A stretch of 64,000 nt of DNA from contig JBJMHA010000012.1 in assembly GCA_045807625.1 (NCBI GenBank), positions 76,432 through 140,431 on the forward strand, read 5' to 3'. The position numbers and the translations under genes were made by a program. Below, piece after piece: positions 6,298 to 59,253 of the stretch. The notes below the pieces were generated by a model. The model was not told the origin of the DNA and did no database searches. It saw only the letters and a list, made by a program, of their open reading frames with translations. The first letter of the stretch is position 1, and each line of letters opens with the position of its first letter. The stretch comes from Thermoanaerobaculia bacterium. GTDB lineage: Bacteria; Acidobacteriota; Thermoanaerobaculia; Multivoradales; UBA5704.

Positions 6298-6409
6298 TCT
6301 CCCGCGCCTTGGCACCCCCGCCCCACCTCTGATAAATCTCCCCCACCCACTACCCCCTCCCGGGGGCTGGCAGGCGATCTGCACGCGGGGCGCAGGGGGA
6401 GATTCGAGT

Positions 6410-8404: not shown

Positions 8405-8410
8405 AGGGGA

Positions 8411-11752: not shown

Positions 11753-11758
11753 GACGAT

Positions 11759-13849: not shown

Positions 13850-13851
13850 GC

Positions 13852-15822: not shown

Positions 15823-15909
15823 CTCTGCCCCTTGCAGGCCGGCGACTTCCCGAGAGACGGGGCGGCCGGTGCTCCCGGTCGCCCCGAGCCATCGCTGTGA
15901 GGGAGGTCT

Positions 15910-16344: not shown

Positions 16345-16538
16345 CTTGCTCTCCTTTGGAGAACACATCTCTCCAAAAGTGATCGGCGATTTTGATAGCC
16401 GATCTGTTTGGGTGGAAGGAGCGGACCGCCCCTTCTCTTGCCTCAGGCCCGAGGATCGCTAAGAGTATACCGTTTTTTAGTGATTGTCAAGAGTTTTCAC
16501 TATTGTAAAGCGGCATGAGGTAAGATCTCCCCCGCCCC

Positions 16539-18971: not shown

Positions 18972-18975
18972 GGCC

Positions 18976-19149
18976 GTGCCCTTCGGCCCTCCTGCCCTTC
19001 GAGGCCTCACCCCCTGGCCCCCTCTCCACAAGTGGAGAGGGGGAAACCCGATTCCGGAGAGCTGAGCCTGCCGGGTCGCGCCCTCCCTCTCCACGAAGTG
19101 GAGAGGGACCGAGGGTGAGGCTTCGAAGGGCAGGACGATCCGAGGGCAC
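18976..19149. repeat. Composite inverted-repeat (MITE/REP-like) element, copy 1
   Basis: CCTCACCC...CCTCTCCAC-N-GTGGAGAGG hairpin pair in inverted orientation; near-identical to copies at 30574 and 47484. Confidence 0.8.
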
Positions 19150-19197
19150 AGGGCTCTGTAACTCGCATGGCCTACCCCTTGCATTTCCCTCCAGACC

Positions 19198-26968: not shown

Positions 26969-27388
26969 ATGCCCTACCGTCTCCTCGCCGATCTCCTCGT
27001 CGCCTTCCACGCCGGCTTCGTCCTCTTCGTCGTCCTGGGCGGGCTGCTCGTCCTGCGCTGGCCGCGCCTGGCCTGGGTCCACCTGCCGGCGGCGGTGTGG
27101 GGGGCCTGGGTCGAATTCTCCTCGACCGTCTGCCCGCTGACCCCGCTGGAGAACCACCTCCGCCACCTGGGCGGGGAGGCCGGCTACTCCGGCGGTTTCA
27201 TCGCGCACTATCTGCTGCCGGTGCTCTATCCGGCGGGGTTGGGCCCGTGGGTCCAGGTTGTTTTGGGAGTTTTCGTGGTGCTCCTGAACGCCGCCGCCTA
27301 CCTGCTCGTCTGGCGGCGATCCGACCGATCCGACGGATCAGACCGATCTGACCGATCCGCGGAATCTCCGGAAGGCGAAGAGGCCTAG
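26969..27388 (+). CDS. DUF2784 family membrane protein
   Basis: LAWVHLPAAVWG, CPLTPLEN, GFIAHYLLPVLYP; tail formed by 9-bp (CCGATCCGA-like) repeats. Confidence 0.85.
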   Translation: MPYRLLADLLVAFHAGFVLFVVLGGLLVLRWPRLAWVHLPAAVWGAWVEFSSTVCPLTPLENHLRHLGGEAGYSGGFIAHYLLPVLYPAGLGPWVQVVLGVFVVLLNAAAYLLVWRRSDRSDGSDRSDRSAESPEGEEA

Positions 27389-30145: not shown

Positions 30146-30185
30146 TGGAGGGAGTTTAACCCAGCGCGACAATACCCGGTGGCCC

Positions 30186-30224
30186 AAAAGGAAAACGAGC
30201 GGCTCCGGGGAACCGCTCGTTTCC
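30186..30224 (-). terminator. Intrinsic terminator after the small peptide gene
   Basis: Stem AAACGAGCGG / CCGCTCGTTT followed by TCCTTTT on the minus strand. Confidence 0.7.
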
Positions 30225-30242
30225 TGAAAGCTCTCAGGTGGC

Positions 30243-30377
30243 TTAGCCGCCGGTCGGGCCACCCGGGCCGGGGTCGCCGCCGCCCGGAACCGTGCAGCAA
30301 TCACCGGGATCCGGACCGCCGTCCGGCGACGTGGGGCCAGCGTTCATCAGGGCTTGGTTCAGCAGCGTATCCTTCAT
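30243..30377 (-). CDS. Small Gly/Pro/Asp-rich peptide (44 aa; alternative starts 30395 or 30437)
   Basis: GAGGAG RBS 6 nt before ATG; MKDTLLNQALMNAGPTSPDGGPDPGDCCTVPGGGDPGPGGPTGG; own promoter motif upstream and terminator downstream. Confidence 0.65.
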   Translation of the reverse strand: MKDTLLNQALMNAGPTSPDGGPDPGDCCTVPGGGDPGPGGPTGG

Positions 30378-32804: not shown

Positions 32805-33170
32805 ATGATCAAGGGGATCAAATTCGCCTCGGTACCGGTATCGGATCAGGATCGCGCGCTGGCATTCTACACAGAGAAGCTCGGCTTCGCCGTGGCCACC
32901 GACCAGCCGTTCAACGACAAGCAGCGCTGGATCGAGCTGCGCATCCCGGGCGCGGCCACCGGCCTGGTCCTGTTCACGCCGGACGGCCACGAAGACCGCA
33001 TCGGCACCTTCTCCAGCATCTCCTTCACCACCGACGACATCCAGAAGACCTACCGGGAGCTCTCGGAGCGCGGCGTCGAATTCTCCGGCCCGCCGAAGTC
33101 CGCCGAGTGGGGCTCCTTCGCGATGTTCAAGGACCCCGACGGCAACCAGTTCGTCCTCTCCGCCAGCTAG
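32805..33170 (+). CDS. VOC/glyoxalase family protein
   Basis: VSDQDRALAFYTEKLGF...FKDPDGNQF; AAGGAG RBS. Confidence 0.9.
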   Translation: MIKGIKFASVPVSDQDRALAFYTEKLGFAVATDQPFNDKQRWIELRIPGAATGLVLFTPDGHEDRIGTFSSISFTTDDIQKTYRELSERGVEFSGPPKSAEWGSFAMFKDPDGNQFVLSAS

Positions 33171-33229
33171 GCGCCGGGAACGGTCCCGCCGGGCGGAGAG
33201 CGCCCTTCCGCCCGGCCCTCCCGGCTCCG

Positions 33230-33520
33230 GATTGACCGCCGCCAGGCGCTGATACAGCGAGCCGCCGAACGCGAGCGCCGCATTGCTGCTCGCCGTTTCG
33301 CAGGCGTTCAGGACGGCGACGGCTGGAAGCGAGGAGCGCAGCAGGGCTGCGAGCTCGCGGCTGCTCAGATGGTCCTGTCCCCCTCCTCGGTTTTGAACAG
33401 GAGGGTGCCCGCGCCGGTCTTCGGATCGAAACCTCCGTGCCCCATGAAGTGCAGGACATGCACCGGCTCCGTGGCAACGGCCTCCAGCAGCGCCTTCCGG
33501 GAGCGGAGAGATGCTTGGGG
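33230..33520 (-). pseudogene. Frameshifted CHAT-domain remnant
   Basis: VHVLHFMGHGGFD...GTLLF in one frame and LAALL...AVLNACET...FGGSLYQRL in another; no start or N-terminal part. Confidence 0.7.
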
Positions 33521-33525
33521 CTGAC

Positions 33526-33924
33526 TCAGATGAAGACCGCCGGTGAGACCCTGAAGCGCCCGGCGAGTGCACGGATCTCGCCAAGGTGCCACTCCTTCTC
33601 CCCGGCAAGGACAGCGCGCACAGCCGGGGCTCCGCCGAGCTCGGGCAGGTCGCCGGGGCCGAGGCCGTGCTCTTCCATCAGATACTCCAGAACCTCGGGT
33701 CCGCTGGCCTCGGGAATGGAGACGTGCTCTTCCTCGTAGGCATGAACGAGGGTTCCCAGGATATCGAGAAACCCGTACAGCGGATGCCGGTCGTCGTCGC
33801 CAATTTCTTCGAGCAACGAGCTCAGACGGTCGACGGCAGAGGCATAGTCCTGCTCGTTGCGGATCGTCAGCAGAGGTCCGATGGCTCGCCAGTGGTCCTG
33901 TGTTTCTTTGCGCAGCGCACTCAT
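33526..33924 (-). CDS. higA: HigA-like antitoxin (HTH)
   Basis: IRNEQDY...LGTLVHAYEEEH...LEYLMEEHGL...IRALAGRFRVSPAVFI; ATG overlaps the toxin's natural stop. Confidence 0.8.
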   Translation of the reverse strand: MSALRKETQDHWRAIGPLLTIRNEQDYASAVDRLSSLLEEIGDDDRHPLYGFLDILGTLVHAYEEEHVSIPEASGPEVLEYLMEEHGLGPGDLPELGGAPAVRAVLAGEKEWHLGEIRALAGRFRVSPAVFI

Positions 33925-34206
33925 GATTTCCAAGCTCCCTGGTCGTATTCTGCGTGGGTCAGCACATGCCGGACGTAGACTCTCGCACGGTTGAAGTGGA
34001 TCGCGGCGATCAACCGGTACTTGTTTCCTCCAATGTTGAAGACAATGAGGTCCCACCCAGTCAGCGCTTGGAAACGTAGCTCTCAGCTCGTTGAAGTCTT
34101 TGAAGTCGGTCTTCCGGATAATGGTGTACCAACGGCTGAGCGGGCTCTGACTGTCGGGATGTCCCTCCCCAAATTCTCGCAGGGCCTTGCGGGAGATGAT
34201 GTGCAT
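33921..34206 (-). pseudogene. higB: HigB-like toxin, frameshifted near 34051
   Basis: MHIISRKALREF...TFPSADWVG continues in another frame as LIVFNIGGNKYRLIAAIHFN...VLTHAEYD...WKS*. Confidence 0.8.
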
Positions 34207-34949
34207 GACAAGGCCCTTCGGCGTCTAGATGATACCAGCAACCGGTGCGCGTTGCCGCCCATCACCAACGCCTCCTGATCGGCGGGAAGGCGGAGCAGTC
34301 TGATCTTTTCCAGCTCCAGGCCGGGATGGAGCCAGGGGCCGTCGGTGCCCAGGAGGAGCTTGCCGGCGCCGGCCTTGCGGACGGCTTCGACCAGGTAGTC
34401 GAAACGGCGCACGCCCGAGGTGTCGGCGTAGACGTTGGGGTAGCGCGCCAGGATGTCCACCATCTGCTGCTGCGCGCGCCAGTCGTCCCAGAAGCTCCCC
34501 ATGTGGGCCACCACGAAGGGGACGTCCGGATACTGCGGCGCCAGCATGTGAAGGACGTAGGGGCGGCCGGTCACGTCCACCAGGATGGGGATCCGGTTCT
34601 CCCGCGCCGCCTCGCAGACCTCGCGCGTGGGCATGGCGTCGGTGCCATGGACCTTGATCCCCCGGAACCCCCACTCGCGGACGGCCCGGCGGACCATGGC
34701 GCGGATGCGGCCGGCGTCCCGCTTGGCGTGGACGAAGGCGAAGCCGATCAGCCGCGGATTTCCCGCCACGATGCGGGCCAACTCGGCGTTGGCCTGCGAG
34801 TAGTCGCTGTGGAAGCAGGGGACGACCACCGTATGGGTGATCCCCGCCTCGCGGGCGCGCCGCAGGTATTTACCCAGGGGAGCGTCGGTGAACGGAGGGC
34901 CGGTCATGCCGTCGCCGCGGCCAGCGTGGCAGTGGAAATCGACGATCAT
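34083..34949 (-). CDS. Amidohydrolase family (Amidohydro_2) protein
   Basis: DFHCH, GIKVH, VAHMG, VYADTS, LLLGTDGP; ATG overlaps the M20 stop; C-terminus runs into higB. Confidence 0.88.
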   Translation of the reverse strand: MIVDFHCHAGRGDGMTGPPFTDAPLGKYLRRAREAGITHTVVVPCFHSDYSQANAELARIVAGNPRLIGFAFVHAKRDAGRIRAMVRRAVREWGFRGIKVHGTDAMPTREVCEAARENRIPILVDVTGRPYVLHMLAPQYPDVPFVVAHMGSFWDDWRAQQQMVDILARYPNVYADTSGVRRFDYLVEAVRKAGAGKLLLGTDGPWLHPGLELEKIRLLRLPADQEALVMGGNAHRLLVSSRRRRALSCTSSPARPCENLGRDIPTVRARSAVGTPLSGRPTSKTSTS

Positions 34950-36352
34950 GCCACGGCCTCCGTCTGGAGCGTCGCGTCGGCGTTGCGCTCCGATCGCACC
35001 AGCGCCATCTCCTCGAGGAAGGCGGCGCAGGTGGCAATGCCCCGTTCGAAGTTGGGGAGGTAGAAGCGCTCGTTGGGGGCATGGATGCGATCGGTGGGCA
35101 GGCCGAAGCCCATCAAAGCGGTAGGAATCCCGAGGATCTCCTGGAACAGGTTGACGACCGGGATGCTGCCGCCGGAACGCAGGAAGACGGGCGCGGCCCC
35201 GAATCCGCGTTTATAGGCGCGCGCGGCCGCTCGGATCGCCGCATGCCGGCGGTCGATCTCCGCCGGCCGCGCCCGCAGTTGAGTCTTCACCTGCGAGCGC
35301 ACCGTCGCCGGCGTCAGACGGGCGAGATGGTGCCGCACCAGGGCTTCGATCTCGGCCGGATCCTGCTCCGGCACCAGGCGGAAGTTGAGCTTGGCCGAGG
35401 CGTGGGCGGGGATGATGGCCTTGCTCCCTTCGCCCTGATAGCCGCCGGTCAGACCGCAGATCGACATCGAGGGGCGCACCGTCGTCCGTTCGTACAGCGA
35501 GAATCCGGGCTCGCCCCAACTCCGTTCGGTCTTGGCGTCCGCGAGGATCTTGGCGTCGGAAGGGCCCACCGTCGCCATGTAGGACCTCTCGCGCGGATCG
35601 AGCGGGCGAACGCGGTCGTAGAAGCCGGGGATGGCGATGTGTCCCTCACGGTCGTGCAGGCACGTGACGATCTCGCAGAGGACCTGGAGAGGATTGTGGA
35701 CGGCGCCGCCGACGGTGCCGGAGTGGAGGTCCTTCGCGGGACCGGTCACCTCCAGCTCCAGGCTCAAGCCGCCGCGCAGCGAATAGGTGAGCGCCGGCTG
35801 CCGGGGTCCCAGCATGCGGGTGTCGGATACCACGGCGGCGTCGGCGGCCAGCTCCCCGGCGTGCTTCGTCAGAAAAGGTTTCAAATTGGGGCTGCCGATC
35901 TCCTCCTCTCCTTCGAAGAGGCACTTGACGTTGACCGGCAGCCGGCCCGCGGTCCGCAGATACGACTCCAGGGCTTTCACGTGAGCGAAGAGCTGCCCCT
36001 TGTCGTCGGCGCTCCCGCGGCCGTAGAGGTGCTGGCCGCGCACCGTGGGCTCGAAGGGCGGGGTCCGCCAGTCCTTGAGTGGATCGGGAGGCTGGACGTC
36101 GTAATGGCCGTAGATCAGCACGGTAGTTTTTCCCGGTGCCCGCAGCCATTCGGCGTAGACGATAGGATGCCGGGGCGTCGCGATCAGTCGGACGCCCGCC
36201 ATACCGATTCGCTGGAGCTGCTGCGCGAGCCATTCCGCGCAGGCCCGCACGTCCTCCGCATGGGCGGATTGGGCGCTGATCGACGGGAAGCGGACGAACC
36301 GCTTGAGCTCGGCGAGAGAGCGAGACCTGTGGGTAAGGGAGTAGGGATGCAA
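34946..36352 (-). CDS. M20 family dipeptidase
   Basis: YGHYDVQP, GRGSADDKG, EGEEEIGS, DLHSG, GGSIP, HAPNE. Confidence 0.92.
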   Translation of the reverse strand: MHPYSLTHRSRSLAELKRFVRFPSISAQSAHAEDVRACAEWLAQQLQRIGMAGVRLIATPRHPIVYAEWLRAPGKTTVLIYGHYDVQPPDPLKDWRTPPFEPTVRGQHLYGRGSADDKGQLFAHVKALESYLRTAGRLPVNVKCLFEGEEEIGSPNLKPFLTKHAGELAADAAVVSDTRMLGPRQPALTYSLRGGLSLELEVTGPAKDLHSGTVGGAVHNPLQVLCEIVTCLHDREGHIAIPGFYDRVRPLDPRERSYMATVGPSDAKILADAKTERSWGEPGFSLYERTTVRPSMSICGLTGGYQGEGSKAIIPAHASAKLNFRLVPEQDPAEIEALVRHHLARLTPATVRSQVKTQLRARPAEIDRRHAAIRAAARAYKRGFGAAPVFLRSGGSIPVVNLFQEILGIPTALMGFGLPTDRIHAPNERFYLPNFERGIATCAAFLEEMALVRSERNADATLQTEAVA

Positions 36353-36363
36353 GCGGCAGCCCT

Positions 36364-38163
36364 TCAGGGGGAAGAGAGGTTGAACAGGATCTCGACTCGC
36401 CGGTTCCTCGCGCGGTTCTGTGATGTCCTGTTGTCGGCGACAGGCTGCTCCTCACCACGGCTCTCGACAACGAAGCGGGGTGCTCGCGCCCCTCGCCGCT
36501 CCAAAGCACTGGCCAGCGCCTGTCGCACGCTTTGCGCGCGGGCTTCCCCGAGCCGCACGTTGTAGGCGGCCGGTCCGGTGCTGTCGGTGTGCCCGACGAC
36601 CCGGATGATCCCGGGAGAACGGCTGGCCAGTCGCGCTGCTATCCGTTCGATTTCGGCTAGGTGGCGCGGTTGGAGGGCCGAACTCCTAAAGGCGAATCCC
36701 GTGAGCACTGTGGGAGAGGTGGTGGGGCTCGGAGGGCGCACACGAGACGGGGTACAGCGAGGGGCCGGCAAGGGGCTTCCTCGGAGGACCGGCTCCCACC
36801 AGCGGCCCACGGCTTGGGGGTGCTGCATGTAGAGGCTGACAAGCCTTGGAAATTCGGGGGCCGACCGGCGGCTCCAGGCAGCGTCGATCTGGCACCAGAA
36901 CTCTCTGACAGCACGGATTGCTAGCTGGCGGGCGACGCCGTGGTGACGGTGAGCAGTGTCGTCTTTGGCCAGCAAGGAGTGAGAGATCTCCTGGACGAAG
37001 GAGACGCGAGATCCCGGCGGCATTGGGAAGGTGCGCTGGCCGGTCTGCCGAGCGCCGGCCTCAGCCAAAGGGCGCAAAACCGCGGAAATCGCCAAACGCA
37101 AGGGAAACAGGACGGCCCGCTCCAAGGCCTGTTGGACTCGCCCAATGCGTGCCGGAATGCCGGTCGAGTCCCACGCGTGGATCAACTGGTCATAGAGTCC
37201 CAGGACCCGTGTTCCGAGGAGCCTCCGAATCAGGACCCGAGTGACCCGCCGTTGTACCGGGGACGGCCGGGTGCCGGGTGGGGTCTCCATAAACATCAGG
37301 AAGAGCTTGCTGAGCGATTCAACGGTATCGTTCAGGAGGAAGACACCGGTCGTCAGACGATATCGGCCCCGGCTGTCTCTGAGCCAACGGGGAGGAGGGG
37401 CGCTCGGATTCAATCCGGTGCGCGGATCGTCTCCGCCCAGCAGGTTGTAGCCGAGCTCGATGAAGTTCGAGTGCGCGTAGAAATCTTCGACGGTGTGCAG
37501 GGCATTCCCGAGGTGTTCCAGCCCTCGTGCGGTCCGACCGCTCACCAGAGCTAGGTTAAGCTGGCGCAACACGTAGCGCCGAGAGATATGAAGGTATGTT
37601 GGTGTCGCGTCCGGGCCTTCATTCCACAAGTTCAGACGCCAGCGGGGCGCTTCCGGTTCGAGCTCGGCATTCCGTGCTCGCAGGGCCTCCGCAACGGGAG
37701 CGCAGGTCGACGGCGAGAGGGCAACACCAAAATCTCGCGGGTTGTCGATATGCTCCTCCCAGCGGTAGGTACCGAACCGGTTGCGGTCCAGCCTGCGGCT
37801 GAACTTGGCTTCGCTCAGGACATCCACAATCTCGAAGATCAGGTCACAGACGGAAGCGGCGCCAGCACCGAGGTACTGGTGGAGAGCCGGCGCCAGGAGT
37901 TGGGACATGTCGCGCTGCCAGTTGCCAAAGTAAATCGCGGACCTTGTCCGGGCATCACGTATCAGGGGCTGGAGGGCGTCATACTCGATCCGTTCGTGCC
38001 CCACCTCCCCCGCGTTGAACAGATCGGCCTCGTCCTCCAGTAAGGGCGGGAGAAAACTGGTCTGCTGCGCCGAACCGGTCAGACCATGGAGCGGAGCGCC
38101 CTGCCGGAGGCTCGCGGGCAAAGAGCCCAGGTCGTGTTCTCGCGCAAGACCGAAGATTTCCAA
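36364..38163 (-). CDS. HET-C-like (Zn-dependent PLC/P1-like) domain fused to a C-terminal OmpA-like domain
   Basis: IYFGNWQRDMSQ, EHIDNP, LGNALHTVEDFYAHSNFIEL, HSLLAKD; OmpA motifs VGHTDSTG..YNVRLGEARA..GEEQP..NRRVEI; TTG start after GAGGGAG. Confidence 0.82.
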   Translation of the reverse strand: MEIFGLAREHDLGSLPASLRQGAPLHGLTGSAQQTSFLPPLLEDEADLFNAGEVGHERIEYDALQPLIRDARTRSAIYFGNWQRDMSQLLAPALHQYLGAGAASVCDLIFEIVDVLSEAKFSRRLDRNRFGTYRWEEHIDNPRDFGVALSPSTCAPVAEALRARNAELEPEAPRWRLNLWNEGPDATPTYLHISRRYVLRQLNLALVSGRTARGLEHLGNALHTVEDFYAHSNFIELGYNLLGGDDPRTGLNPSAPPPRWLRDSRGRYRLTTGVFLLNDTVESLSKLFLMFMETPPGTRPSPVQRRVTRVLIRRLLGTRVLGLYDQLIHAWDSTGIPARIGRVQQALERAVLFPLRLAISAVLRPLAEAGARQTGQRTFPMPPGSRVSFVQEISHSLLAKDDTAHRHHGVARQLAIRAVREFWCQIDAAWSRRSAPEFPRLVSLYMQHPQAVGRWWEPVLRGSPLPAPRCTPSRVRPPSPTTSPTVLTGFAFRSSALQPRHLAEIERIAARLASRSPGIIRVVGHTDSTGPAAYNVRLGEARAQSVRQALASALERRGARAPRFVVESRGEEQPVADNRTSQNRARNRRVEILFNLSSP

Positions 38164-38220
38164 GATGGCTCCCTCACAGTTCGTTGGTCCGGTTCAAATA
38201 CCTGGCTGAGTTGGTCGAGC

Positions 38221-39384
38221 CTAGTACTCCTGCGCCGCGCTCCGGCTCCCGCCCGCCGCCGCCCGTGGCCGGTTCGCCGCCCCGGAGACCAGACGCGGCC
38301 GGTCCCACGGCAGCACGCGAGCGCTGCCGTCCGGGTTGCGGTTGGCGACTCCGAGGGCCTGCGCGCTGGTGAGCCACTCTTCCGCGGATTCGGCGATCTG
38401 AAGTAGCAAAGCCTCGAATTGCGGGCGCGAGGTCTGCAGGATGTGCGGCTGGGCGAGCCAGCGCATCACCTCGCGGCCGGTCACCGCCATGCGCTGCCGC
38501 GGCGAGGTCTGCAAACGCTCGTTGAAGTGGCGGACGAGCACGTCCTCGATCACGTCCCAGGCCGTGTCGGCGCCGAACAGCCGCCGTATGTCGTCGGTGC
38601 TGAGGATGCGGAAGGCCTCGTCGAGAAGCTGCATCACCTCGACCCGCAGCACATTGAGGTTGCCGAAGGAGGTGAACTTCATGTTGTTGCGCAGGTCGAG
38701 GCCGGCGCGACGGACGATGGCGATCGAGCCGAAGCTGGGATCGTTCGCCCGCTCGCGGATGACGTCGGAGATCCGCTTGTCGCGCCAGAACAGGGTGATC
38801 TGGTTGATCAGATGGCTGAACAGTCCCTGGAAGTCGGTGTTCGGCCGCGAGCCCGGGGGGACCTGGGCGTTGCCGAAGCCGAGCACCCGGCGGTAGGCCA
38901 CCGACCGGTCGCGCCGGGTATAGCGCAGCACCTCGCGGCGGTCGAACTGGTAGAGGCCGTAGGCGCCTTCACCGGTCGACAGGCGCACGGAACCGCCGCG
39001 GAACAGCTCCTGGAGCTTCTGCACCACGCGGAAGACGCCGATCCGCTCGTGCTGATAGATGTAGTAGAGGTCGCCCACCGCGATGATGCGCTCGGAGGTG
39101 ACGGTCTCGTCGTAGGGCTCGACCTGCTGCGGCAGCAGGGTGTCGCCGAGCTTGCGGGCCGCGTCCGGGCCGACGCCGATCAGTTGGGCGAGCCCCTTGT
39201 CGGGCGGCAGCGGCTTCCGGCCGTCCGCGTTCACCACGGCCGAGTAGAGGTCGTTGATCTGCTGGACGATCGCCTCCGCGAGCTGCGGGTTCTGAATAAG
39301 GTCGGACGACAGCCGGCCCGTCATCGTCTCCTGCAGCGCCGCGACGCGGTCGAGAAGGCTTTGGTAGTCCTGTGTGATCGCCAT
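38221..39384 (-). CDS. Hypothetical protein (387 aa), operon member
   Basis: AAGGAG RBS, GC3-rich coding; no motif recognised. Confidence 0.85.
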   Translation of the reverse strand: MAITQDYQSLLDRVAALQETMTGRLSSDLIQNPQLAEAIVQQINDLYSAVVNADGRKPLPPDKGLAQLIGVGPDAARKLGDTLLPQQVEPYDETVTSERIIAVGDLYYIYQHERIGVFRVVQKLQELFRGGSVRLSTGEGAYGLYQFDRREVLRYTRRDRSVAYRRVLGFGNAQVPPGSRPNTDFQGLFSHLINQITLFWRDKRISDVIRERANDPSFGSIAIVRRAGLDLRNNMKFTSFGNLNVLRVEVMQLLDEAFRILSTDDIRRLFGADTAWDVIEDVLVRHFNERLQTSPRQRMAVTGREVMRWLAQPHILQTSRPQFEALLLQIAESAEEWLTSAQALGVANRNPDGSARVLPWDRPRLVSGAANRPRAAAGGSRSAAQEY

Positions 39385-39424
39385 TGTGGCTCTCCTTCTT
39401 CAGGTCATTGCGTGCGGCGCGCCG

Positions 39425-41395
39425 TCAGCGGCCTTTGCGAGCACGGGGGGCCGCGGTCCGGTTGTCGCCTGCGTCTTCGTTTTCGTCGTCCGCGCCGGCG
39501 AGGATCTCGAAACCTTCCTCCAGCACGTCGGATTGGTCGCCGGGATTGGTCACGGTGACGTCCCGCGGTCCGGGGGTCGCTTCGGCGTCGATGTGGATCG
39601 AGATCTCCAGGAGCCGGTCGGGCGTGAGCACGGGATCGCCGAGCACGCCGAGCACGGTGACGTCCTCTGCCCCCTGCGGCCCGGGCTCGAAGGCGACCGT
39701 CGCCCCCTCCTGGAAGTCCCTGCCGTGGATCTTCATGAGGATCTTCTGGCCGGGCCTCCCCCTGTCCGGCGAGAGCCGGCGGATGAGCGGCATCACCCCC
39801 GGCTGCGGCTCGGGCTCGGGGAGGAGGCGGCCGCACAGGATGGTGAGGGCGTGAGACAGCGAGCTGTGGGTGCTGTCGGGGTTGCGGACCACCACGGACC
39901 AGACGGTGTCGCCGACGGTGTTGCCGACGGTGTCGCCGACGAATCCGCGGGCGTCGTTGATCTCCTTGGCGTCGAACGTCGCCCAGAGGACCGAGGAGCT
40001 GCCGAAGTGGACGCGCCGGGCTTCCACCGAAACCTTTCTATTGAGAGCCGCTTCGGGCAGATCGATCCGGACCTGCGACTGCGGCTGGAATCCTTCCCCC
40101 TCGATCCTCAGGATGAGCGGCTCCTTGTCGTGCTCCAGTTGTCTGGGATCGACCTGCCGGGGATCGACGGCCGCGATCTTCGCCGGTGGCGTGCGGCTGA
40201 GCGGCTGGGCCAGGTGCTCGGCGTTCCGCAGTTGCAGCAGCACGCTGTCCAGGGCGTTGCTCGCGCGCAGCGTATGCACGCCGGGCGAGGGGTTGCGCGA
40301 CTCGCGACGGGAGATCGCCACCGCCTCGGTGAACAGCCCTATCAGACGCTGGAGGGTGGGACGGAAGGCGATGACGCCGTCCTTGCCCGCCTCCCGCATG
40401 AGCTGCGGCGCCTCCTCGGAAGCGAAACGCTCGGCCCATTCGAGGAGCTCGGCCAGGGTGAGCGGCGGCTCGGGATGCGCGAAAGGGAGCCGGGTCGTCT
40501 CCCGCTCGGCCGGCCCCACGAACACCGAGTCGAGCGTGAAGTAGGTCTCCCGCACCTGCTCTGCGATCACGGCCAGGGCACGCGACAGCAGCACAAACTG
40601 CGGGCCGAGGAAGACGTCCGGACCGATGCGGTCAAAGTAGGTGCGCAGCGACGTCCAGCTCAGCCAGAGGGTGAAGGCGTGGTCGGCGAGGATGAGGAAG
40701 TTGGTGAGGTTCTTCTCCTCTTCGGCGTTGTTGACGCGCGACAGCTCGAAGCCGAGGCGGTCGCGCAGCAGGCCGAGCTGGCCCCCCACGTGGTCGGAAT
40801 TGAAGGTGGTCACCGGCTTTCCGGTGATCTCGATGCCCAGCATCAGGTCGAACAGGGAGTCCACGCGCTGCGGGCGCGGCCCCCCCTGGCGGCCGAGCTC
40901 GTCGACGAGCTCGGTCATCGCCAGGCGGAGCGTCGCCACGGTGGCGGCGAGATCCTCGGGATCGGAGTCGATCTGCAGCGGATAGAGACCCTCGAGGAGG
41001 GGAATACTCTGCTGCACGGCCGCCTGGGCACGGGCGAAAATGCTGGCCTGGGCGCCGGTGACCGCGCCGCCGTCGCCTTGCACTTGCATCACGTAAGAAC
41101 GCGGCACGTGGGTCGTGACGGTACGGCCTTCGATCTCCTGGATGTTGAACGACTGGGTCAGCGCCGCCGCGAACCCCTGGGGATCCTTGAGGGAGCGGGG
41201 TCCCCAGTTCAGGATATCGCGCAGGGTGTTCTTTACCAGGGAGTCATAGGATGACCGGCCCGTGCCGTAGGCCGAGGTCGGCGCGCCGGCAGTGCCGATC
41301 GAGCCGATGTCCTCGGTCAGGATGGGAAAGGCGGTCACGTCCTCGACCGCTCGAACGAAGCGTTCTTGCTCGTCATTGTTCGGTGTGCTTGCCAT
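39425..41395 (-). CDS. Hypothetical protein with helical N-terminal domain and two IPT/TIG-like Ig domains
   Basis: IEGEGFQ...VVVRNPD and IHGRDFQEGATV...RDVTVTNPG repeats; GAGGA RBS. Confidence 0.8.
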   Translation of the reverse strand: MASTPNNDEQERFVRAVEDVTAFPILTEDIGSIGTAGAPTSAYGTGRSSYDSLVKNTLRDILNWGPRSLKDPQGFAAALTQSFNIQEIEGRTVTTHVPRSYVMQVQGDGGAVTGAQASIFARAQAAVQQSIPLLEGLYPLQIDSDPEDLAATVATLRLAMTELVDELGRQGGPRPQRVDSLFDLMLGIEITGKPVTTFNSDHVGGQLGLLRDRLGFELSRVNNAEEEKNLTNFLILADHAFTLWLSWTSLRTYFDRIGPDVFLGPQFVLLSRALAVIAEQVRETYFTLDSVFVGPAERETTRLPFAHPEPPLTLAELLEWAERFASEEAPQLMREAGKDGVIAFRPTLQRLIGLFTEAVAISRRESRNPSPGVHTLRASNALDSVLLQLRNAEHLAQPLSRTPPAKIAAVDPRQVDPRQLEHDKEPLILRIEGEGFQPQSQVRIDLPEAALNRKVSVEARRVHFGSSSVLWATFDAKEINDARGFVGDTVGNTVGDTVWSVVVRNPDSTHSSLSHALTILCGRLLPEPEPQPGVMPLIRRLSPDRGRPGQKILMKIHGRDFQEGATVAFEPGPQGAEDVTVLGVLGDPVLTPDRLLEISIHIDAEATPGPRDVTVTNPGDQSDVLEEGFEILAGADDENEDAGDNRTAAPRARKGR

Positions 41396-41912
41396 GGCTT
41401 CTTGTCCTCTCTAGGCTCGGGGTGTGTGGGGAAGCCGGCGCGCCGGCTTGCTCGGCGATCTCTTTCCAGCCCTGGAACAGGGCTTCGTCGACGTCGTGGG
41501 TGGCGCCCTGGCACTGATCGATGGAGTCGCGGACGCTCTTCACCCAACTCGTCCACTCCCGCCCCCGCCCTCGCTCCAGCGCGGCGAGGTCGGCGATGCG
41601 CCCGAAGGAGGTGACCTCCGCCGAGAACCCTCGCTGGAAGCGCAGGAAGCGTTCCTGGCAGTGGGCCAGGGCATCCCGCGCCGCCTCCAGGTCGCGCGGA
41701 TACTCGACCGCCCGCCGCCCCTGGACGGCCGCGTCGAGCGACTCCCCCAGCCACTCCTCGAGGTCGATCACGGCCTCGCCCAGGCGGTCCAGCAGCGCGC
41801 CGGCGCCTTGGAGAGGCTTGTCCTCGACCACGGCGAGCCGCAGGCCGAGCAGGCCGTCGCGCAGCCGTTCGAGCCGGAGGGTGAGCTCGCCGAAGGCGCC
41901 GTCCAGGGCCAC
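41373..41912 (-). CDS. Hypothetical alpha-helical protein (179 aa)
   Basis: GTG start 3 nt after the upstream stop; 23-nt overlap with the next gene. Confidence 0.75.
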   Translation of the reverse strand: MALDGAFGELTLRLERLRDGLLGLRLAVVEDKPLQGAGALLDRLGEAVIDLEEWLGESLDAAVQGRRAVEYPRDLEAARDALAHCQERFLRFQRGFSAEVTSFGRIADLAALERGRGREWTSWVKSVRDSIDQCQGATHDVDEALFQGWKEIAEQAGAPASPHTPSLERTRSHGKHTEQ

Positions 41913-41915
41913 CGC

Positions 41916-43256
41916 CTATCTCCTCTCCAACTGGGCGTAGAAGTTGCGGGTGATCACGCCCGGCCGGGCCAGCCGGTGATCGAGGGCGAAGCGGGCGGCG
42001 CCGATCATGAAGCGCTCGGGCAAAATCCCGGGATCGATCCCCGCCGAGAGACGGCGGGCGGCCTCTTCGATCATCCTCTGCTCCTTGGGCTGAAAGCGGA
42101 TGACCTGCGCCAGGGTCTTGCCGCCGAGCGAGGGGTAGGGCTGGAAGCAGATGGCATCCACCACCAGCGCCACGGCCCGCGGCCAGGTGGCCATCACCGG
42201 TCCGGGGATGTTGCCGCCCCGGGGGTCCGGATAGAGCCGGCTCCAGGCCCGGCCGTAGGATTCGGCCTCGGCGGGGAAGCCCATCCGGCGCAACAGCTCG
42301 ACAGAGAGGAAGGTCCGCAGGTAGGGCACCGGGTGTGGCGCCCGCGGCGCATAGGACACCACGGCCGACGGCCCGCGTCCCACCACGTCCATGAGCGAGC
42401 CCACCACGGCCGGGCCGCCGAGCAGCAGCCCGCCGAGGTCGGCGAAGATCTCCCGGTTCCACCGCGTCCACACGGCGGCCACGGAGCGGCCGAGGCCCGC
42501 TGCGAGCAGCCGCCGCGCGATGGCGCGGGGGACGGCGCGGGCGAGCCCCAGGTCGTTCTGCAGGTTGTGGCAGACCTCGTGGAGCACGGCCCCCAGGGTC
42601 CATGGGTTGACCATCCGGTGGTAGGGGAGCTGGATCAGCGGGAACGGGTTGAGCTGCCGGCCCAGCCGCGTCAGGGGGATGCCGCGGCGGAAGGTGGCGG
42701 GGGAGAAGCCGGTCCGCATGTAGGAGAAGGGGGCCGGCGCGGGGATGGAGCGGGCTGCCCCAAGCCCCAGGTAGGCGGTCTGATAGCAGTCCTGGGCGAT
42801 GCGGTCGCACCCCAGCAGCCAGACGCCGAAACGGGACTGGCGCTGGCCGAAGAGCTCGAAATAGAAGTCCCAGATCTGCTCGACGGCCCGTACCCGGTCG
42901 TGGGCCCGTTCCTTGTGGCGGACCATCTCCTGAAGGCGGGGCGTGGTGGATTCCGCCAGAGCGGCCTCGACGGAGCCGGTCACCTTGCGGGTCTTGCGGA
43001 ACAGGTCCCGGCGCAACGTCGAGAGGAGGGCGTTGGCGGCCTGGATGTGCCCCTCGGAAGGGATCTCCGGGCCGGCGCCGAACTCCTCGCGGCGGAACGG
43101 GCGCAAGGCGGCGGCATGACGCATGACGTTGAGCGACTGCGCCCGCAGCCAGGGCCGCAGGACCGGAGCGGTCGCTTCGGCCCCCCCCACGCCCGCCGGC
43201 GGCGTGGCCGTCGCCGGCGGGTCGGTGGCGTTCCGTTCGAGGGTCTCGAGCATCAT
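41916..43256 (-). CDS. Putative zinc metalloprotease (HEXXH)
   Basis: VLHEVCHNL, downstream EIFADL and HP motifs (gluzincin/M48-like spacing); GAGGAGG RBS. Confidence 0.72.
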   Translation of the reverse strand: MMLETLERNATDPPATATPPAGVGGAEATAPVLRPWLRAQSLNVMRHAAALRPFRREEFGAGPEIPSEGHIQAANALLSTLRRDLFRKTRKVTGSVEAALAESTTPRLQEMVRHKERAHDRVRAVEQIWDFYFELFGQRQSRFGVWLLGCDRIAQDCYQTAYLGLGAARSIPAPAPFSYMRTGFSPATFRRGIPLTRLGRQLNPFPLIQLPYHRMVNPWTLGAVLHEVCHNLQNDLGLARAVPRAIARRLLAAGLGRSVAAVWTRWNREIFADLGGLLLGGPAVVGSLMDVVGRGPSAVVSYAPRAPHPVPYLRTFLSVELLRRMGFPAEAESYGRAWSRLYPDPRGGNIPGPVMATWPRAVALVVDAICFQPYPSLGGKTLAQVIRFQPKEQRMIEEAARRLSAGIDPGILPERFMIGAARFALDHRLARPGVITRNFYAQLERR

Positions 43257-43268
43257 GGCGCCCTCCTC

Positions 43269-44195
43269 TCAACGCGCTCCGTTGGTGGCCTGGCGGCAGG
43301 TCGAGCAGAGATGGGCCGCTGGACGGACGGCTCGCGAGGCGAGCCGGGGGACCGCTGTCCGGATGCTGGCCGCGGGGCCGGTGGCCGAGGCCACGGGGCC
43401 GGCGGTACGGTGATAGGTGCGGTCGAGCGCCCGCGAGCGCCGGTAGGCCTGGGCGCATTGCGCCGGGCTGCCGATCACCTGCGAGGTCTGGCGGGCCAGG
43501 GTGCGCACGGCCGCCTGCGGCGTCACCCGCCGCCCCTGCTGGGCCTGCCGGGCGAGCGTCGCCGTGGTGCGGCGTACCACGGTCGGCAGGGCCCGCACCA
43601 GCGGCCGGGTGGCGGGATTGGCGCGCAGGGTCCGCGCCGCGCCGGCCACGCCGCGGATGAGAGTGGGAGCGACCCGCATCACCGCCGAGGCCGCCCGCGG
43701 GACGAGCCGGGCCGCCAGCGGCACCAGGGCACCCAGGAAGGCCTCCGCCTCGGCTTCGCTCTCGGCTTCGGCGGCGGCGTGCCCGAGGTGCTCCATCAGG
43801 GCATCGGGATAGACGCGGCGGATGGGATTGATCTCGCTCTCGGATTCGAATTCCCACTCGCCTTCCCGCTGCGGCAGCCAACTGGCGACCTGCTGGCCGA
43901 GCACCCCTCCCAGGCCGCGGCCGAGAGAGGCCCCCCGGGCACCGCCGAGGGAGCCGCCCAGGGACGCTCCCGCGCCCCCCAGCCCCGAAAGGGCGCCGCG
44001 GGCGGCGCGCAGGCCCACCTGGCGCAGGGCGGGGGAGGAGGCGGCCCGCCGGGCGAGGGAGAGGATGCGGCGGAAAAACTCCTCGCTCTCCCCTTCCCCC
44101 TCGGCCTCCCACTCCCACTCGCCTTCCCCTTCAGCCTCCCACTCCGACTCGCCTTCCAGCTCCGGCAGGGCTTCCAGCTCATATTCGTTTGCCAT
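43269..44195 (-). CDS. Acidic/basic block protein B (Glu-X repeats alternating with Arg-rich helices)
   Basis: EGESEWEAEGEGEWEWE...EE|FFRRILSLARR; GGAGG RBS; paralog of 44230..45156. Confidence 0.85.
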   Translation of the reverse strand: MANEYELEALPELEGESEWEAEGEGEWEWEAEGEGESEEFFRRILSLARRAASSPALRQVGLRAARGALSGLGGAGASLGGSLGGARGASLGRGLGGVLGQQVASWLPQREGEWEFESESEINPIRRVYPDALMEHLGHAAAEAESEAEAEAFLGALVPLAARLVPRAASAVMRVAPTLIRGVAGAARTLRANPATRPLVRALPTVVRRTTATLARQAQQGRRVTPQAAVRTLARQTSQVIGSPAQCAQAYRRSRALDRTYHRTAGPVASATGPAASIRTAVPRLASRAVRPAAHLCSTCRQATNGAR

Positions 44196-44229
44196 TACGA
44201 CCTCCTTTGAGTCTTTGAGCCGCCTTTGG

Positions 44230-45156
44230 CTAGTTGGGACGGCGGGTGCGCGGACGGGCGGCGGCGGTGGGGCGCTGGACCGTGCGGGCGGCGCGGACGT
44301 TGCGCTGGATGGCGGCGGCGCAGGTGCGCGGGCTGGACAGCACGCGGCGGGTCTGATTCGCCATCACGCGGGCGGCGGTCCGGCGGGTGACCGGCTGGCC
44401 GGCGGCGGCGCGGCGGGCGAGCACGGAAGCCGTGCGGCGCGCGATGGTGGGGACGGCGCGCACGGCCGGACGCGTGATCCGCCGCTGGCGCAGGATGCGG
44501 GTGAGGATGGCCGTGCCGCGCACCAGGTGCGGCAGGACGACACGCAGGGCCGCCCGGTCCGCGGGCGAGATGGCGCTCACGGTAGCCGCGCCGGCCATCG
44601 CCTCGGCCTCGGCCTCGGTGCGGGCCTGAGAGGCGACCGCCGCCATCAGCTCGGCCAGCGCCTGGGTCTGGGTGGGAGCCGCTTCGGTCTCCCCCTCATA
44701 CTCCAGCTCGCCCTCGTACTCCCCTTCGAATTCCATCTCCATCTCCATCTCGCCCTCGCCGAGAGCCGAGGACGCGACCCGGCCGAGCATGCCGCCCAGC
44801 GGGCCGCCGACCGCCGTGCCGACGATGGGAGCCGCCACCCGCGCGACCTGGCGCAGGATCGGCGCGGCGCGGCGAACGAAGCCGCCGACTCCGCGAGCGA
44901 CGCGGCGGAGACGTCGGAAGAACTCCTCCCCCTCCATCTCACCCTCCATCTCCCACTCACCCTCCCCTTCCATCTCCCACTCCCCTTCGCCCTCGAATTC
45001 CCCCTCCCCCTCGCCGAGCAGGCCGCCGATGCCACGGGCGATCGTGCCCAGGAACTCCTCGCCTTCGAATTCCCCTTCACCCTCGAATTCGCCTTCGCCC
45101 TCAAACTCGCCTTCACCCTCGAATTCGAGCTCGAGCTCACCTTCCAGTGTCGCCAT
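44230..45156 (-). CDS. Acidic/basic block protein A (Glu-X repeats alternating with Arg-rich helices)
   Basis: (EGEGEF)n...EE|FLGTIARGIGGLLG|...EE|FFRRLRRVARG; AAGGAGG RBS; first gene of the operon. Confidence 0.85.
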   Translation of the reverse strand: MATLEGELELEFEGEGEFEGEGEFEGEGEFEGEEFLGTIARGIGGLLGEGEGEFEGEGEWEMEGEGEWEMEGEMEGEEFFRRLRRVARGVGGFVRRAAPILRQVARVAAPIVGTAVGGPLGGMLGRVASSALGEGEMEMEMEFEGEYEGELEYEGETEAAPTQTQALAELMAAVASQARTEAEAEAMAGAATVSAISPADRAALRVVLPHLVRGTAILTRILRQRRITRPAVRAVPTIARRTASVLARRAAAGQPVTRRTAARVMANQTRRVLSSPRTCAAAIQRNVRAARTVQRPTAAARPRTRRPN

Positions 45157-45396
45157 GGGATTTCCTCCTTCGTTCGTTGCACGGATGAGTCATTGGGGCT
45201 GCTGCCGACAGAGATCAATCTAGACCGGCATCGGAAACCGTGGGCAGTCACATCTTCCGGGGAGGCCGAAACGTGCTTCCCCATTCGTGTGTCGCACGAA
45301 ACAGTGACGTCAGAAATCAGAAGAGACTGTAGAATGTATAAAGAAGGAAATACAAATGGATGGCGGGAACGCCAACACCGATGTGAGGAGGGTCTC

Positions 45397-58140: not shown

Positions 58141-59253
58141 CTATTCGGGGGGGAGGATTGCCGTTGAATTGCCGATAACTTGCCGATAACTTGCCGAGAG
58201 CTCGTAGATCCGGCCGCGGCGGGAGGGGTTGGCGACCACCAGCCACCCCTCAGCCGTCCATTTTTGGAGGAGCAGGCGGGCGGTGCGATCGGAGAGGCCG
58301 AGCAGGCGGGCGATCTCGGGTGCGGTTACGCGGTCTTGACGGGCAAAGAGGGCCAGAACGGCCCGGGCGCGCGCGTCCAGCCGGCGCAACTCCTCCGGCT
58401 CCCCATGGGTCCCCTCACGGCTGATCCGGACGATCTCTTCCTTGGTGGACGTGAAGGCCGCCGCCAGGACGGTAAGGAAATAGTCCAGCCACGAGGTCAG
58501 GTCGGCCGAGTCCCGCCCTTCGTAATAGTTGTGATGAGGATGGACGGCGAGGGAGTCGTAGTAGGCGGTGAGATCGCGAGCGTGCTCTTCTTCCAGGGAA
58601 TAGAGCCCGTTCAGGCCGTAGCCGTCCCGCTGGAGCAGAAAGGTCGCGAGGAGCCGGGCGGCCCGGCCGTTGCCGTCGTAATAAGGATGGATGGTGACGA
58701 ATTGATAGTGGGCCAGGCCGGCGATGAGGGGCGGCGGGAGCCGTTCCTCCTCCGCCTTCCGGGTCCAGGCGACGAGGCCCGCCATCAGGGTGGGAACGTC
58801 TCTGGCTTCGGGAGGCAGATAGATCAGGGCCCCGGTCTCGGAATCCCGGATCGTATTCTGGCCGTCGCGGTAGCGGCTGGGGCGTGTCCGCCCTTCCACC
58901 AGAGCGTGGACGCGCTGGATGAGCTCTTCCGTCAGCTCGGTCCCCCGCGCCGCCCACTCCTCGACGCGGAGCAGGGCTTTCCAGTAGCTCCGGACCTCGC
59001 TGACGTCCCTCTCGCGGCCGTGGAGCGGGACCTTGCGGCCGGCGAGGACCCGCTCGGCTTCGGCCAGGGTCAGCCGGTTCCCCTCGATCCGGGTGGAGTA
59101 GTGGGTGGAGCGGAGCCGCGCCCGGTTCCGCATCTCCGACACGGCGGCCGGCGGTAGGGGGATCTGCTCGACGACCGCCCGCGCCGCCTCGATCTCCATG
59201 AGACGGCGGGCTATGGCCGGCGTCAGGGTGTAGCGCGGCTGCCAGGGAATCAC
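58141..59253 (-). CDS. Fic family protein (class II, auto-inhibited) with C-terminal HTH
   Basis: HPYYDGNGRAAR catalytic motif; STRIEGN inhibitory motif. Confidence 0.9.
   Translation of the reverse strand: MIPWQPRYTLTPAIARRLMEIEAARAVVEQIPLPPAAVSEMRNRARLRSTHYSTRIEGNRLTLAEAERVLAGRKVPLHGRERDVSEVRSYWKALLRVEEWAARGTELTEELIQRVHALVEGRTRPSRYRDGQNTIRDSETGALIYLPPEARDVPTLMAGLVAWTRKAEEERLPPPLIAGLAHYQFVTIHPYYDGNGRAARLLATFLLQRDGYGLNGLYSLEEEHARDLTAYYDSLAVHPHHNYYEGRDSADLTSWLDYFLTVLAAAFTSTKEEIVRISREGTHGEPEELRRLDARARAVLALFARQDRVTAPEIARLLGLSDRTARLLLQKWTAEGWLVVANPSRRGRIYELSASYRQVIGNSTAILPPE

Follow-up and report, generated by a model that had tools for sequence, protein, structure and literature searches.

Het-C-OmpA, a putative protease-gated enzyme carried as variable cargo of a nine-gene bacterial cassette

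The Het-C-OmpA gene and its product

The window analysed here, i.e., 64,000 nucleotides of contig JBJMHA010000012.1 of a Thermoanaerobaculia bacterium (assembly GCA_045807625.1, positions 76,432 to 140,431), contains a nine-gene cassette in which one gene codes for a protein combining a Het-C domain with an OmpA-like domain (Het-C-OmpA). The features of this protein, of its relatives and of its neighbours suggest that it may be made as a latent enzyme and activated by a proteolytic cut directly before Phe49.

The gene lies on the minus strand (36364..38163; 599 residues plus stop codon; list of open reading frames (ORFs), translation and Pfam) and starts with TTG. An ORF at this place was part of the original prediction. 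It exists, but has to be read on the minus strand: the plus-strand reading of 36364-38163 was rejected, its frame being riddled with stops. By inspection of the sequence, a Shine-Dalgarno-like GAGGGAG (38169..38175, minus strand) is located 5 nt ahead of the TTG at 38163. The only other in-frame starts upstream of Met86 are TTG codon 15, without a Shine-Dalgarno sequence, and GTG codon 54; a start at the latter would delete Phe49. The pro-region is conserved at the protein level and is thus considered as translated.

From the N-terminus, the product comprises (all coordinates on the minus strand): (i) a putative pro-sequence, residues 1-48 (38020..38163), of low pLDDT (predicted local distance difference test), with the motifs HGLT (26-29) and PPLLEDEADL (39-48), kept in homologues as GHSLT...PPxPEDEADL; (ii) Phe49 (TTC codon, 38017..38019), the proposed mature N-terminus and metal ligand on the basis of conservation, fungal alignment and model superposition; (iii) the putative catalytic Het-C domain, residues 49 to about 460 (36784..38019), delimited by invariant columns, the AlphaFold model and matches of the VIA structure search; (iv) a Pro/Ser/Thr-rich linker, residues about 461-489 (36697..36783), seen in the translation; (v) an OmpA-like peptidoglycan-binding domain, residues 490-588 (36400..36696), with Pfam PF00691 and NCBIfam OmpA/Pal/MotB-type domain matches.

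Pfam Het-C (PF07217) matches in two stretches with E 8.3e-16 and 58.1 bits (cut-off 21), a match recovered also by the whole-genome search, and OmpA with E 5.2e-17 and 62.4 bits (cut-off 27.2) over profile positions 2-98 of 98. Both scores are far above chance. VWA7_N reaches 27.0 bits, slightly below its cut-off of 27.5. In the translation, YFGNWQRD is found at residues 78-85, LHTVEDFYAHSNFIEL at 222-237 and LEDEADL↓FNAGEVGH (the arrow marks the proposed junction) at 42-56. The HET-C motifs, the Pro-rich linker and the OmpA-like domain of the original prediction are all present in the translation and in Pfam. The pattern TD..G...YN..L...RA is visible in the OmpA-like domain and is presumably its peptidoglycan-contact motif. 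The description of the pro-sequence as acidic holds mainly for its last dozen residues (4 Asp/Glu vs. 0 Lys/Arg); residues 1-48 as a whole contain 7 vs. 2.

The translation contains no signal peptide or lipobox, and Pfam detects no PAAR, VgrG, RHS or eCIS_core trafficking module in the protein. The Pfam scan (E up to 0.01) gives no match to Zn_dep_PLPC (PF00882) or S1-P1_nuclease (PF02265); the protein is thus filed under Het-C and not under either of these families.

Conservation of the junction before Phe49

A homologue search of 5.8 billion proteins with the window Het-C protein gave 42 matches. Het-C is found in 40 of them, and 28 of these 40 also contain OmpA or PG_binding_1/3; VanY occurs in one. 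A separate search for longer fused forms gave 2 matches, neither being a cassette-type HExxH-Het-C fusion (weak evidence). The invariant residues of a 37-sequence alignment are H56, Y78-W82, D85, H138, D140, H223, E226, D227, H231, H395 and D401; Phe49 reaches at least 90% conservation. The motif set of Tox-HET-C (H, [DE], HxD, HxxxDxxxH) is found as H56, D85, H138-x-D140 and H223-xxx-D227-xxx-H231, all of them invariant.

The region ahead of Phe49 varies in length from 12 to 546 residues in the homologues, yet it ends in a conserved junction. The consensus of the close family is (M/L)PP(L/R)PEDEADL↓F(N/D)AGEAGHE, with position -2 to Phe49 occupied by Asp (30/32) or Glu (2/32). An H[SG]L motif stands about 20 residues upstream in roughly 22 of the 32 close homologues, as counted by eye.

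The comparison was extended to 78 genome loci with Het-C relatives, 66 of which have a readable YFGNW-type frame. An aromatic residue is found 7-20 residues ahead of the conserved His in 63 of these 66 (57 Phe, 6 Tyr), and the residues directly before it differ by subfamily: D-x, E-x, [KR]-R or W-R. A constant aromatic residue behind changing, site-like residues would fit a processing junction served by different proteases. The [KR]-R↓F and W-R↓Y junctions are those of other Het-C subfamilies (loci L004-L078, i.e., Pseudomonas, Stenotrophomonas, Massilia, Thermogemmatispora and others).

Fold and placement of Phe49

Three independent lines bear on the proposal that Phe49 is the counterpart of Trp1 in zinc-dependent phospholipases C (Zn-PLCs) and S1-P1 nucleases: fungal HET-C, structure, and bacterial S1-P1 nucleases.

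Out of 2,541 relatives of a chytrid HET-C, the best 120 make up the fungal sample (P0040, P0044-P0162). In all 120, the Phe of the FGAGN motif, located at residues 13-32, stands right after a hydrophobic signal peptide, and the window Phe49 aligns with it. Residues -3 and -1 are small in 116 of the 120, mostly as V-x-A↓F (a check of the -3/-1 rule and not a SignalP prediction). Signal peptidase would make this conserved Phe residue 1, i.e., since it directly follows the signal peptide, mature fungal HET-C should begin with Phe.

The AlphaFold model covers residues 1-470, with a pLDDT of 88.8 and a pTM (predicted template modelling score) of 0.86. Residues 1-37 are below 50 and the 40s at about 45-55; order begins at about residue 51. 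In the VIA search against 48,161 chains, Zn-PLCs occupy ranks 2-4 (144-150 residues aligned, model 49-434) and S1/P1 nucleases have Z 5.5-5.6. The matches include 1olp_A (Z 7.8, root-mean-square deviation (rmsd) 3.1, 144 aligned), 1ah7_A (Z 7.5, rmsd 3.4, 150 aligned, 17% identity, model 49-433 to chain 4-245) and 8cqm_B (Z 7.5-7.6, 143-146 aligned in two comparisons). In a second VIA comparison all top 8 rows are Zn-PLCs, followed by S1/P1-type nucleases. Across the model comparisons Z ranges over 7.1-7.8 for Zn-PLCs and 4.6-5.9 for S1/P1 nucleases. A fold match spanning residues 49-435 is limited to these two groups, the remaining rows covering the helical insert 277-375 only. The model thus predicts for the Het-C domain an all-alpha fold of Zn-PLC/S1-P1 type, superposing on solved members with Z below 8. 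This kinship, given as established in the original prediction, is in print as a prediction, according to the accessible part of Zhang et al. 2012 (PMC3482391), and is borne out by the model superposition. A PDB sequence search with the family profile matched the peptidoglycan-binding part alone.

The first aligned model residue (48-52) corresponds to residue 2-10 of the mature PLC and S1-P1 enzymes, in terms of alignment ranges and not of residue pairs: 50 to 2 for 1kho_A, 52 to 3 for 1qm6_A, 51 to 2 for 4cxo_A and 3w52_A, and 51 to 22 for 5fba (S1), the numbering of which presumably includes a 20-residue signal peptide. Given these ranges, Phe49 is predicted to lie within 1-3 residues of the position of mature residue 1; as far as alignment ranges tell, the model does not place it far from the metal site. 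PLC/P1 enzymes have nine metal ligands, and the invariant His, Asp and Glu residues of the 37 sequences are numerous enough for such a set (this is a count and not a spatial equivalence).

Lastly, in four bacterial S1-P1 nucleases taken from genomes a signal peptide is followed by A↓WGxxGH, which by eye resembles DL↓FNAGEVGH of the window protein.

The HExxH protein

The cassette encodes a protein of 446 residues (41916..43256, minus strand) with a conserved HExxH...ExxxD motif, which is a candidate processing metallopeptidase. All 32 cassette orthologues keep H226, E227, H230, E269 and D273. In 37 relatives with 23-65% identity the same residues are invariant, except for E269 with a conservation of at least 90%. 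On its sequence, the protein bears the gluzincin signature, in which HExxH is followed further on by a Glu (ExxxD). Peptidases of this group prefer hydrophobic residues at P1', a preference with which cuts before Phe would agree.

With 2,036 cluster representatives (E up to 0.001), this is a large family. Pfam has no match for 22 of 24 scanned members; one member (P0164) has an N-terminal Amidase_2 fusion. The model of the window protein has a pLDDT of 81.5, and Foldseek against PDB gives no match for it at E up to 0.001. ESM Atlas returns unnamed clusters, the nearest named ones being Peptidase_U49 and M48 at 0.77 (a lead only).

The association of HExxH with Het-C is recurrent. An HExxH is found in the same ORF, 89-148 residues upstream of YFGNW, in 36 of the 66 bacterial Het-C ORFs. 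It is HEFGH in long proteobacterial proteins and HELTH or HELAH in Chloroflexi-type proteins. Pfam names the HELTH type in P0039 eCIS_core, and the relative P0041 begins with PAAR. A separate HExxH gene in the operon is found in all four Het-C cassettes, i.e., in the window and in loci L001-L003, from metagenome-assembled genomes (MAGs) labelled Thermomicrobiales, Phycisphaera and Solirubrobacterales.

The cassette and its distribution

All nine genes are on the minus strand. Their order is block protein A (44230..45156, 308 residues), block protein B (43269..44195, 308 residues), the HExxH protein, p179 (41373..41912), p656 (39425..41395), p387 (38221..39384), Het-C-OmpA, an M20 dipeptidase (34946..36352) and an Amidohydro_2 protein (34083..34949), with successive gaps of 34, 12, 3, -23, 40, 57, 11 and -4 bp. 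The same order is found in L001-L003. p179 is small, helical and weakly conserved (30-32% identity to ORFs of L001 and L002). p656 is a core protein without family that adjoins p387 in 51 of 53 loci; its C-terminal part has a weak match to the NCBIfam CoaZ repeat (E 2.5e-7). p387 is highly conserved, with 66-92% identity in 80 metagenome loci. The M20 gene begins 11 bp 3' of the Het-C gene (Pfam M20; NCBIfam PRK08201, E 3e-163) and follows the slot in most loci; the Amidohydro_2 gene (Pfam), the last conserved one, is kept in L002, L003 and most metagenome loci. Apart from the weak CoaZ match, p387, p656, p179, the HExxH protein and the block proteins have no meaningful match in Pfam, NCBIfam, PHROGs or PADLOC. 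ESM Atlas gave nothing usable for p387.

At least 486 relatives of p387 turned up in a metagenome scan, from which 80 loci were kept. Twenty-eight loci extend 7 kb or more upstream of p387; all 28 contain the HExxH gene, and p656, like each of the block proteins, is found in 27. A divergent LuxR/GerE-type regulator (Pfam GerE; in the window 45301..45852, plus strand, start approximate) lies upstream in 12 of the 28 and at the 3' end in others. In the phylum, p387 occurs in 4 of 301 sampled genomes, with 0/1 in the same family and 0/10 in the same order. Because p387 is rare in the phylum and was not found in close relatives, the cassette is patchily distributed and probably mobile. No ORF lies between the p387, Het-C and M20 genes (gaps of 57 and 11 bp), so that an adjoining immunity-like gene is absent; one of the core proteins may serve as immunity factor. 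A promoter and terminator scan of 33000-46500 gave nothing above shuffled expectation.

In both block proteins, acidic runs of Glu, Gly and Phe alternate with acid-free, cationic and strongly amphipathic stretches. The acid-free parts of block protein A are residues 35-48 and 79-133 (55 residues, net +10, helical hydrophobic moment 0.91), and its C-terminal part has net +27. Orthologues (L081-L160) have the same plan, with repeating units such as GEGWLGAIGNVVGSLLGEGE. To judge from these sequences, the block proteins resemble polyproteins in which acidic spacers separate membrane-active peptides to be released; the precursors of animal antimicrobial peptides are an analogy. The junctions are EE↓FL and EE↓FF in block protein A and EE↓FF in block protein B. 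The sharing of an acidic-x↓Phe junction with Het-C-OmpA, proposed in the original prediction, is real: in L001 the block junctions EDEADQFL, EDEGDPFL and EDEGDAFF are nearly identical to EDEADLFN of Het-C, a resemblance that would support a common cleavage site. It is nonetheless weak evidence, as discussed below.

Other genes of the window were recorded. About 4 kb past the downstream end of the cassette, 27338-30304 (minus strand) codes for a TPR-CHAT protein of 988 residues (CHAT E 5.9e-62) that is not part of the conserved set: a single weak match was found, in L143. Mobile or conflict-type genes are scattered in the window: a group II intron reverse transcriptase/maturase (2722-4065, plus), an AAA_21 (AbiEii-like) ATPase (4487-5737, plus), a weak HigB-like match (33526-34206, minus) and a Fic-HTH protein (58141-59253, minus). 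An alpha-glucan cluster (6221-21852, plus) with GlgE, a TreS-maltokinase fusion, MalQ, GlgB, GH57/DUF3536 and an alpha-amylase-family protein belongs to ordinary metabolism.

The variable cargo slot

In 62 loci, between 10 bp and 4.3 kb separate p387 from the M20 or amidohydrolase gene, with no more than 400 bp in 21 of them. None of the slots of L081-L160 contains a Het-C domain. Among 42 scanned slot ORFs, 18 match cell-wall-binding or hydrolase families: OmpA (6 ORFs, one weak), PG_binding_1 (5), Aspzincin_M35 (5, two of them above the Pfam cut-off), Amidase_2 + Golvesin_C (1) and SH3_3 + CHAP (1). Three of the six OmpA ORFs have a second domain, i.e., Extensin-like_C, Trypsin or DUF4056. 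In L001, a Peptidase_M74 ORF stands before the Het-C gene. Since the slot content varies between loci, Het-C-OmpA is one interchangeable wall-directed cargo of the cassette. The designation of this protein as the operon's effector therefore has to be narrowed: it does occupy the variable cargo slot of a conserved cassette, but many other cargoes can take its place, and effector function may extend to the block proteins.

An N-terminal acidic leader (at least 35% Asp/Glu over 20 residues) is found in 24 of 44 slot ORFs vs. 5 of 255 core proteins; with a threshold of 40%, the counts are 12/44 vs. 0/255. Many slot leaders end in ...SEAE(M/L/Q)FAP. Acidic leaders are also present in slot ORFs without Pfam family (L094:12752-13459, L095:5578-6285, L120, L127, L136). 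Small, mutually similar ORFs follow some cargoes (L105:12886-13563, L127:12401-12997, L136:4218-4853) and could be immunity or accessory genes.

Proposed mechanism and alternatives

The reading we propose, to which we give an even chance, is that Het-C-OmpA is a protease-gated zymogen, cut before Phe49 probably by the HExxH protein and serving as cargo of a lytic cassette. Het-C-OmpA would be made as a latent metal-dependent hydrolase tethered to a peptidoglycan-binding domain, with residues 1-48 as a disordered pro-sequence. A cut at Leu48↓Phe49 would free the alpha-amino group of Phe49, which, as the counterpart of Trp1 in Zn-PLCs and S1-P1 nucleases, would join His56 and the conserved His and Asp residues in a complete metal site. 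The HExxH...ExxxD protein would be the most likely protease, cutting also the [D/E]-x↓Phe junctions of the block proteins, and the nine-gene cassette would be horizontally mobile, with Het-C-OmpA as one of its exchangeable lytic cargoes. While the analysis shows the family, the likeness of fold, the conservation, the placement of Phe49, the make-up of the cassette and its variable slot, we infer that the protein is cleaved and active, which protease cuts it, whether it acts on lipid or nucleic acid, and whether its target is the envelope of a competitor or that of the producer. The interpretation given in the original prediction is supported in part.

A wider proposal is doubtful and put forward tentatively: all Het-C proteins, fungal and bacterial, may use a free N-terminal Phe as ligand, the bacterial toxins being protease-gated zymogens in consequence, and the cassette may be an undescribed mobile, protease-gated lytic arsenal in which one HExxH...ExxxD endopeptidase, by cuts at [D/E]-x↓Phe junctions, at once frees cationic peptides from acidic polyproteins and activates whatever wall-directed enzyme is in the slot.

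Several points weigh against the proposed zymogen. (i) Fold: every structural Z is below 8, which for helical proteins may reflect a common arrangement; Foldseek against PDB gives no match for the Het-C model at E up to 0.001; hhalign of Het-C with the four genomic S1-P1 nucleases, done in three ways, is not significant (probability <1%). (ii) Junction: the enzyme may stay uncleaved, with the conserved Asp at -2 as a ligand or a cap; other cargoes have ELE-type leaders, which the Het-C leader does not resemble; the analogy with the block proteins is weak because an acidic residue before Phe is near-inevitable in acid-rich proteins. Of the junction evidence, only the conservation in Het-C itself (acidic at -2 in 32/32) carries weight. 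(iii) Protease: Pfam gives no match for the HExxH protein at E up to 10; the sole broad peptidase match of its model is weak (PepO (M13), Z 7.7, rmsd 4.9, 226 aligned, rank 32); hhalign of the family with the fused HEFGH module of the Pseudomonas Het-C P0037 gives a probability of 2%; 30 of the 66 bacterial Het-C ORFs have no nearby HExxH in the same protein. (iv) Export: signal peptides and clear membrane segments are lacking throughout the cassette, which gives a peptidoglycan-binding enzyme no evident path to the wall. Possible routes are self-lysis via freed peptides, release by lysis, and delivery by a type VI secretion system (T6SS) or sheath.

The last point leads to a first alternative, possible but doubtful, in which the cassette is a self-lysis or abortive module and not a weapon sent into other cells: once it is induced, freed cationic peptides would breach the membrane of the producer and a wall-directed cargo would destroy its own envelope. 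The lack of signal peptides and membrane segments speaks for it, as do the endolysin-like cargoes (Amidase_2, CHAP, M74, PG_binding_1 fusions), the cationic 55-residue stretch of block protein A, the regulator genes flanking the cassette and the missing immunity-like gene beside Het-C. On the other hand, the core proteins match neither PADLOC nor PHROGs, phage genes are absent nearby, and the basis of this explanation consists of sequence features. Moreover, self-lysis is compatible with a zymogen mechanism rather than opposed to it.

A second alternative, rather unlikely, holds that the N-terminal 48 residues serve only as a signal for loading or trafficking by a T6SS, an extracellular contractile injection system (eCIS) or another route, and that the enzyme works uncleaved with Phe49 in its structural core. 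Distant bacterial Het-C sit behind PAAR, eCIS_core or very long VgrG-like N-termini, both among the relatives analysed here and in the accessible parts of two reports (PMC6838775, PMC13055248). The genome does contain, elsewhere, a TssC/VipB gene (E 5.6e-135; contig C18, L168) and a phage/eCIS-type sheath gene (E 5.2e-22; C40, L167), and the acidic leaders of the other slot cargoes could be loading signals. Against it, no T6SS or eCIS gene is present in the window, and the L001-L003 genomes have TssC in 0/3 and a sheath in 1/3 (weak evidence, these being MAGs). Such a signal would also leave aside that the fungal Phe stands exactly at the signal-peptidase site in 120/120, that an HExxH module precedes embedded Het-C in 36/66 ORFs, and that one extra N-terminal residue inactivates the Listeria phospholipase LmPC-PLC (accessible part of PMC10576769).

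It is unlikely, thirdly, that the pro-sequence is removed by another protease, i.e., one of the target cell, the M20 or amidohydrolase protein, a housekeeping protease or the protein itself by autoprocessing. The HExxH protein matches no curated peptidase family, the [KR]R↓F and WR↓Y junctions of other subfamilies suggest different proteases, and the Het-C leader differs from the ELE leaders. However, every locus with sufficient upstream DNA (28/28) and every Het-C cassette (4/4) has the HExxH gene, the HExxH...ExxxD signature of its product is conserved, HExxH is fused upstream of Het-C in 36/66 other ORFs, and M20 enzymes, being exopeptidases or dipeptidases (here an NCBIfam dipeptidase), are poor endoproteolytic candidates.

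Finally, it is very improbable that the protein has no relation to its neighbours and is an ordinary envelope housekeeping enzyme that scavenges or remodels as a phospholipase or nuclease anchored to the wall: OmpA-like anchors are common in housekeeping envelope proteins (NCBIfam matches), but Het-C-OmpA has neither signal peptide nor lipobox, lies close between the adjoining genes of a nine-gene operon (57 and 11 bp away), occupies a slot that varies between loci and accompanies a p387 found in 4/301 genomes of the phylum, 0/1 of the family and 0/10 of the order.

To our knowledge, no biochemical activity has been demonstrated for HET-C, a decades-old genetic landmark of fungal incompatibility. 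In the accessible part of PMC13055248, bacterial Het-C effectors still figure under 'unknown function'. If the proposed zymogen is real and a free N-terminal Phe is needed, (i) exposing Phe49 would be a concrete and cheap recipe for an active enzyme; (ii) this could explain why full-length recombinant Het-C proteins would appear inert; (iii) the recurrent HExxH modules beside bacterial Het-C would gain an activating role. The analysis also exposes a widespread soil-bacterial cassette, the core proteins of which match no family in the four libraries searched (the weak CoaZ match aside); the p387 relatives and the size of the HExxH family show the spread of its proteins.

Comparison with known systems

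S1/P1 nucleases (SmNuc1, Aspergillus S1) share with Het-C the fold match, over model residues 51-435, and, if the window protein is cut as proposed, a mature start made of an aromatic residue, a glycine-rich turn and a His. Their structural scores are lower than those of PLCs and the profile comparison is not significant. Unlike them, Het-C has a helical insert of about 100 residues (277-375) and extra C-terminal helices.

Tox-HET-C polymorphic toxins and the T6SS 'evolved VgrG' LysM/Het-C proteins belong to the same Pfam family, with the same motif set and the same predicted kinship with PLC and S1-P1 enzymes. They are also associated with a metallopeptidase module and with peptidoglycan-binding domains; the module of Tox-HET-C is the 'PVC-metallopeptidase' in the accessible part of Zhang et al. 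2012 (PMC3482391), in which no mention was found of an N-terminal aromatic ligand or of a zymogen logic. Nor was a statement that Het-C requires a free N-terminal Phe, or that the mature fungal protein starts with Phe, found in the accessible parts of the literature examined. The window protein differs by the lack of PAAR, VgrG, RHS and eCIS_core and of adjoining T6SS/eCIS genes; its HExxH partner is a separate gene and of another family.

Fungal HET-C has a homologous catalytic domain, in which the conserved Phe, the GH..IE helix, YFGNW, EHxDNP and HTxEDFxAHSNF align. The fungal proteins are secretory, with a longer loop from Phe to His and Gly-rich C-terminal tails, and have no peptidoglycan-binding domain.

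The closest precedent would be, by analogy, the Listeria proPC-PLC (PlcB) activated by Mpl. The differences are clear: there is no detectable sequence similarity, the window protein being Het-C and not Zn_dep_PLPC; it has no Sec signal peptide and carries a C-terminal OmpA-like wall anchor; Mpl is of family M4, whereas the candidate protease is from an unnamed family; the context is a multi-cargo cassette instead of a virulence operon, with processing that is here proposed. Nevertheless, both enzymes have, or are predicted to have, an all-alpha Zn-PLC-type fold (8cqm_B) and an N-terminal segment directly before an aromatic residue, which must be a free N-terminus in Listeria and would be one here, and both are encoded with an HExxH metalloprotease, a candidate one in the window. 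According to the accessible part of PMC10576769, LmPC-PLC is an inactive proenzyme from which Mpl strips a 26-residue propeptide; protease gating of a Zn-PLC is thus established biology. The W1 position is critical in LmPC-PLC, one added residue killing activity, and among the W1 substitutions W1F alone retains activity (PMC10576769, same part), so that a Phe at position 1 appears workable.

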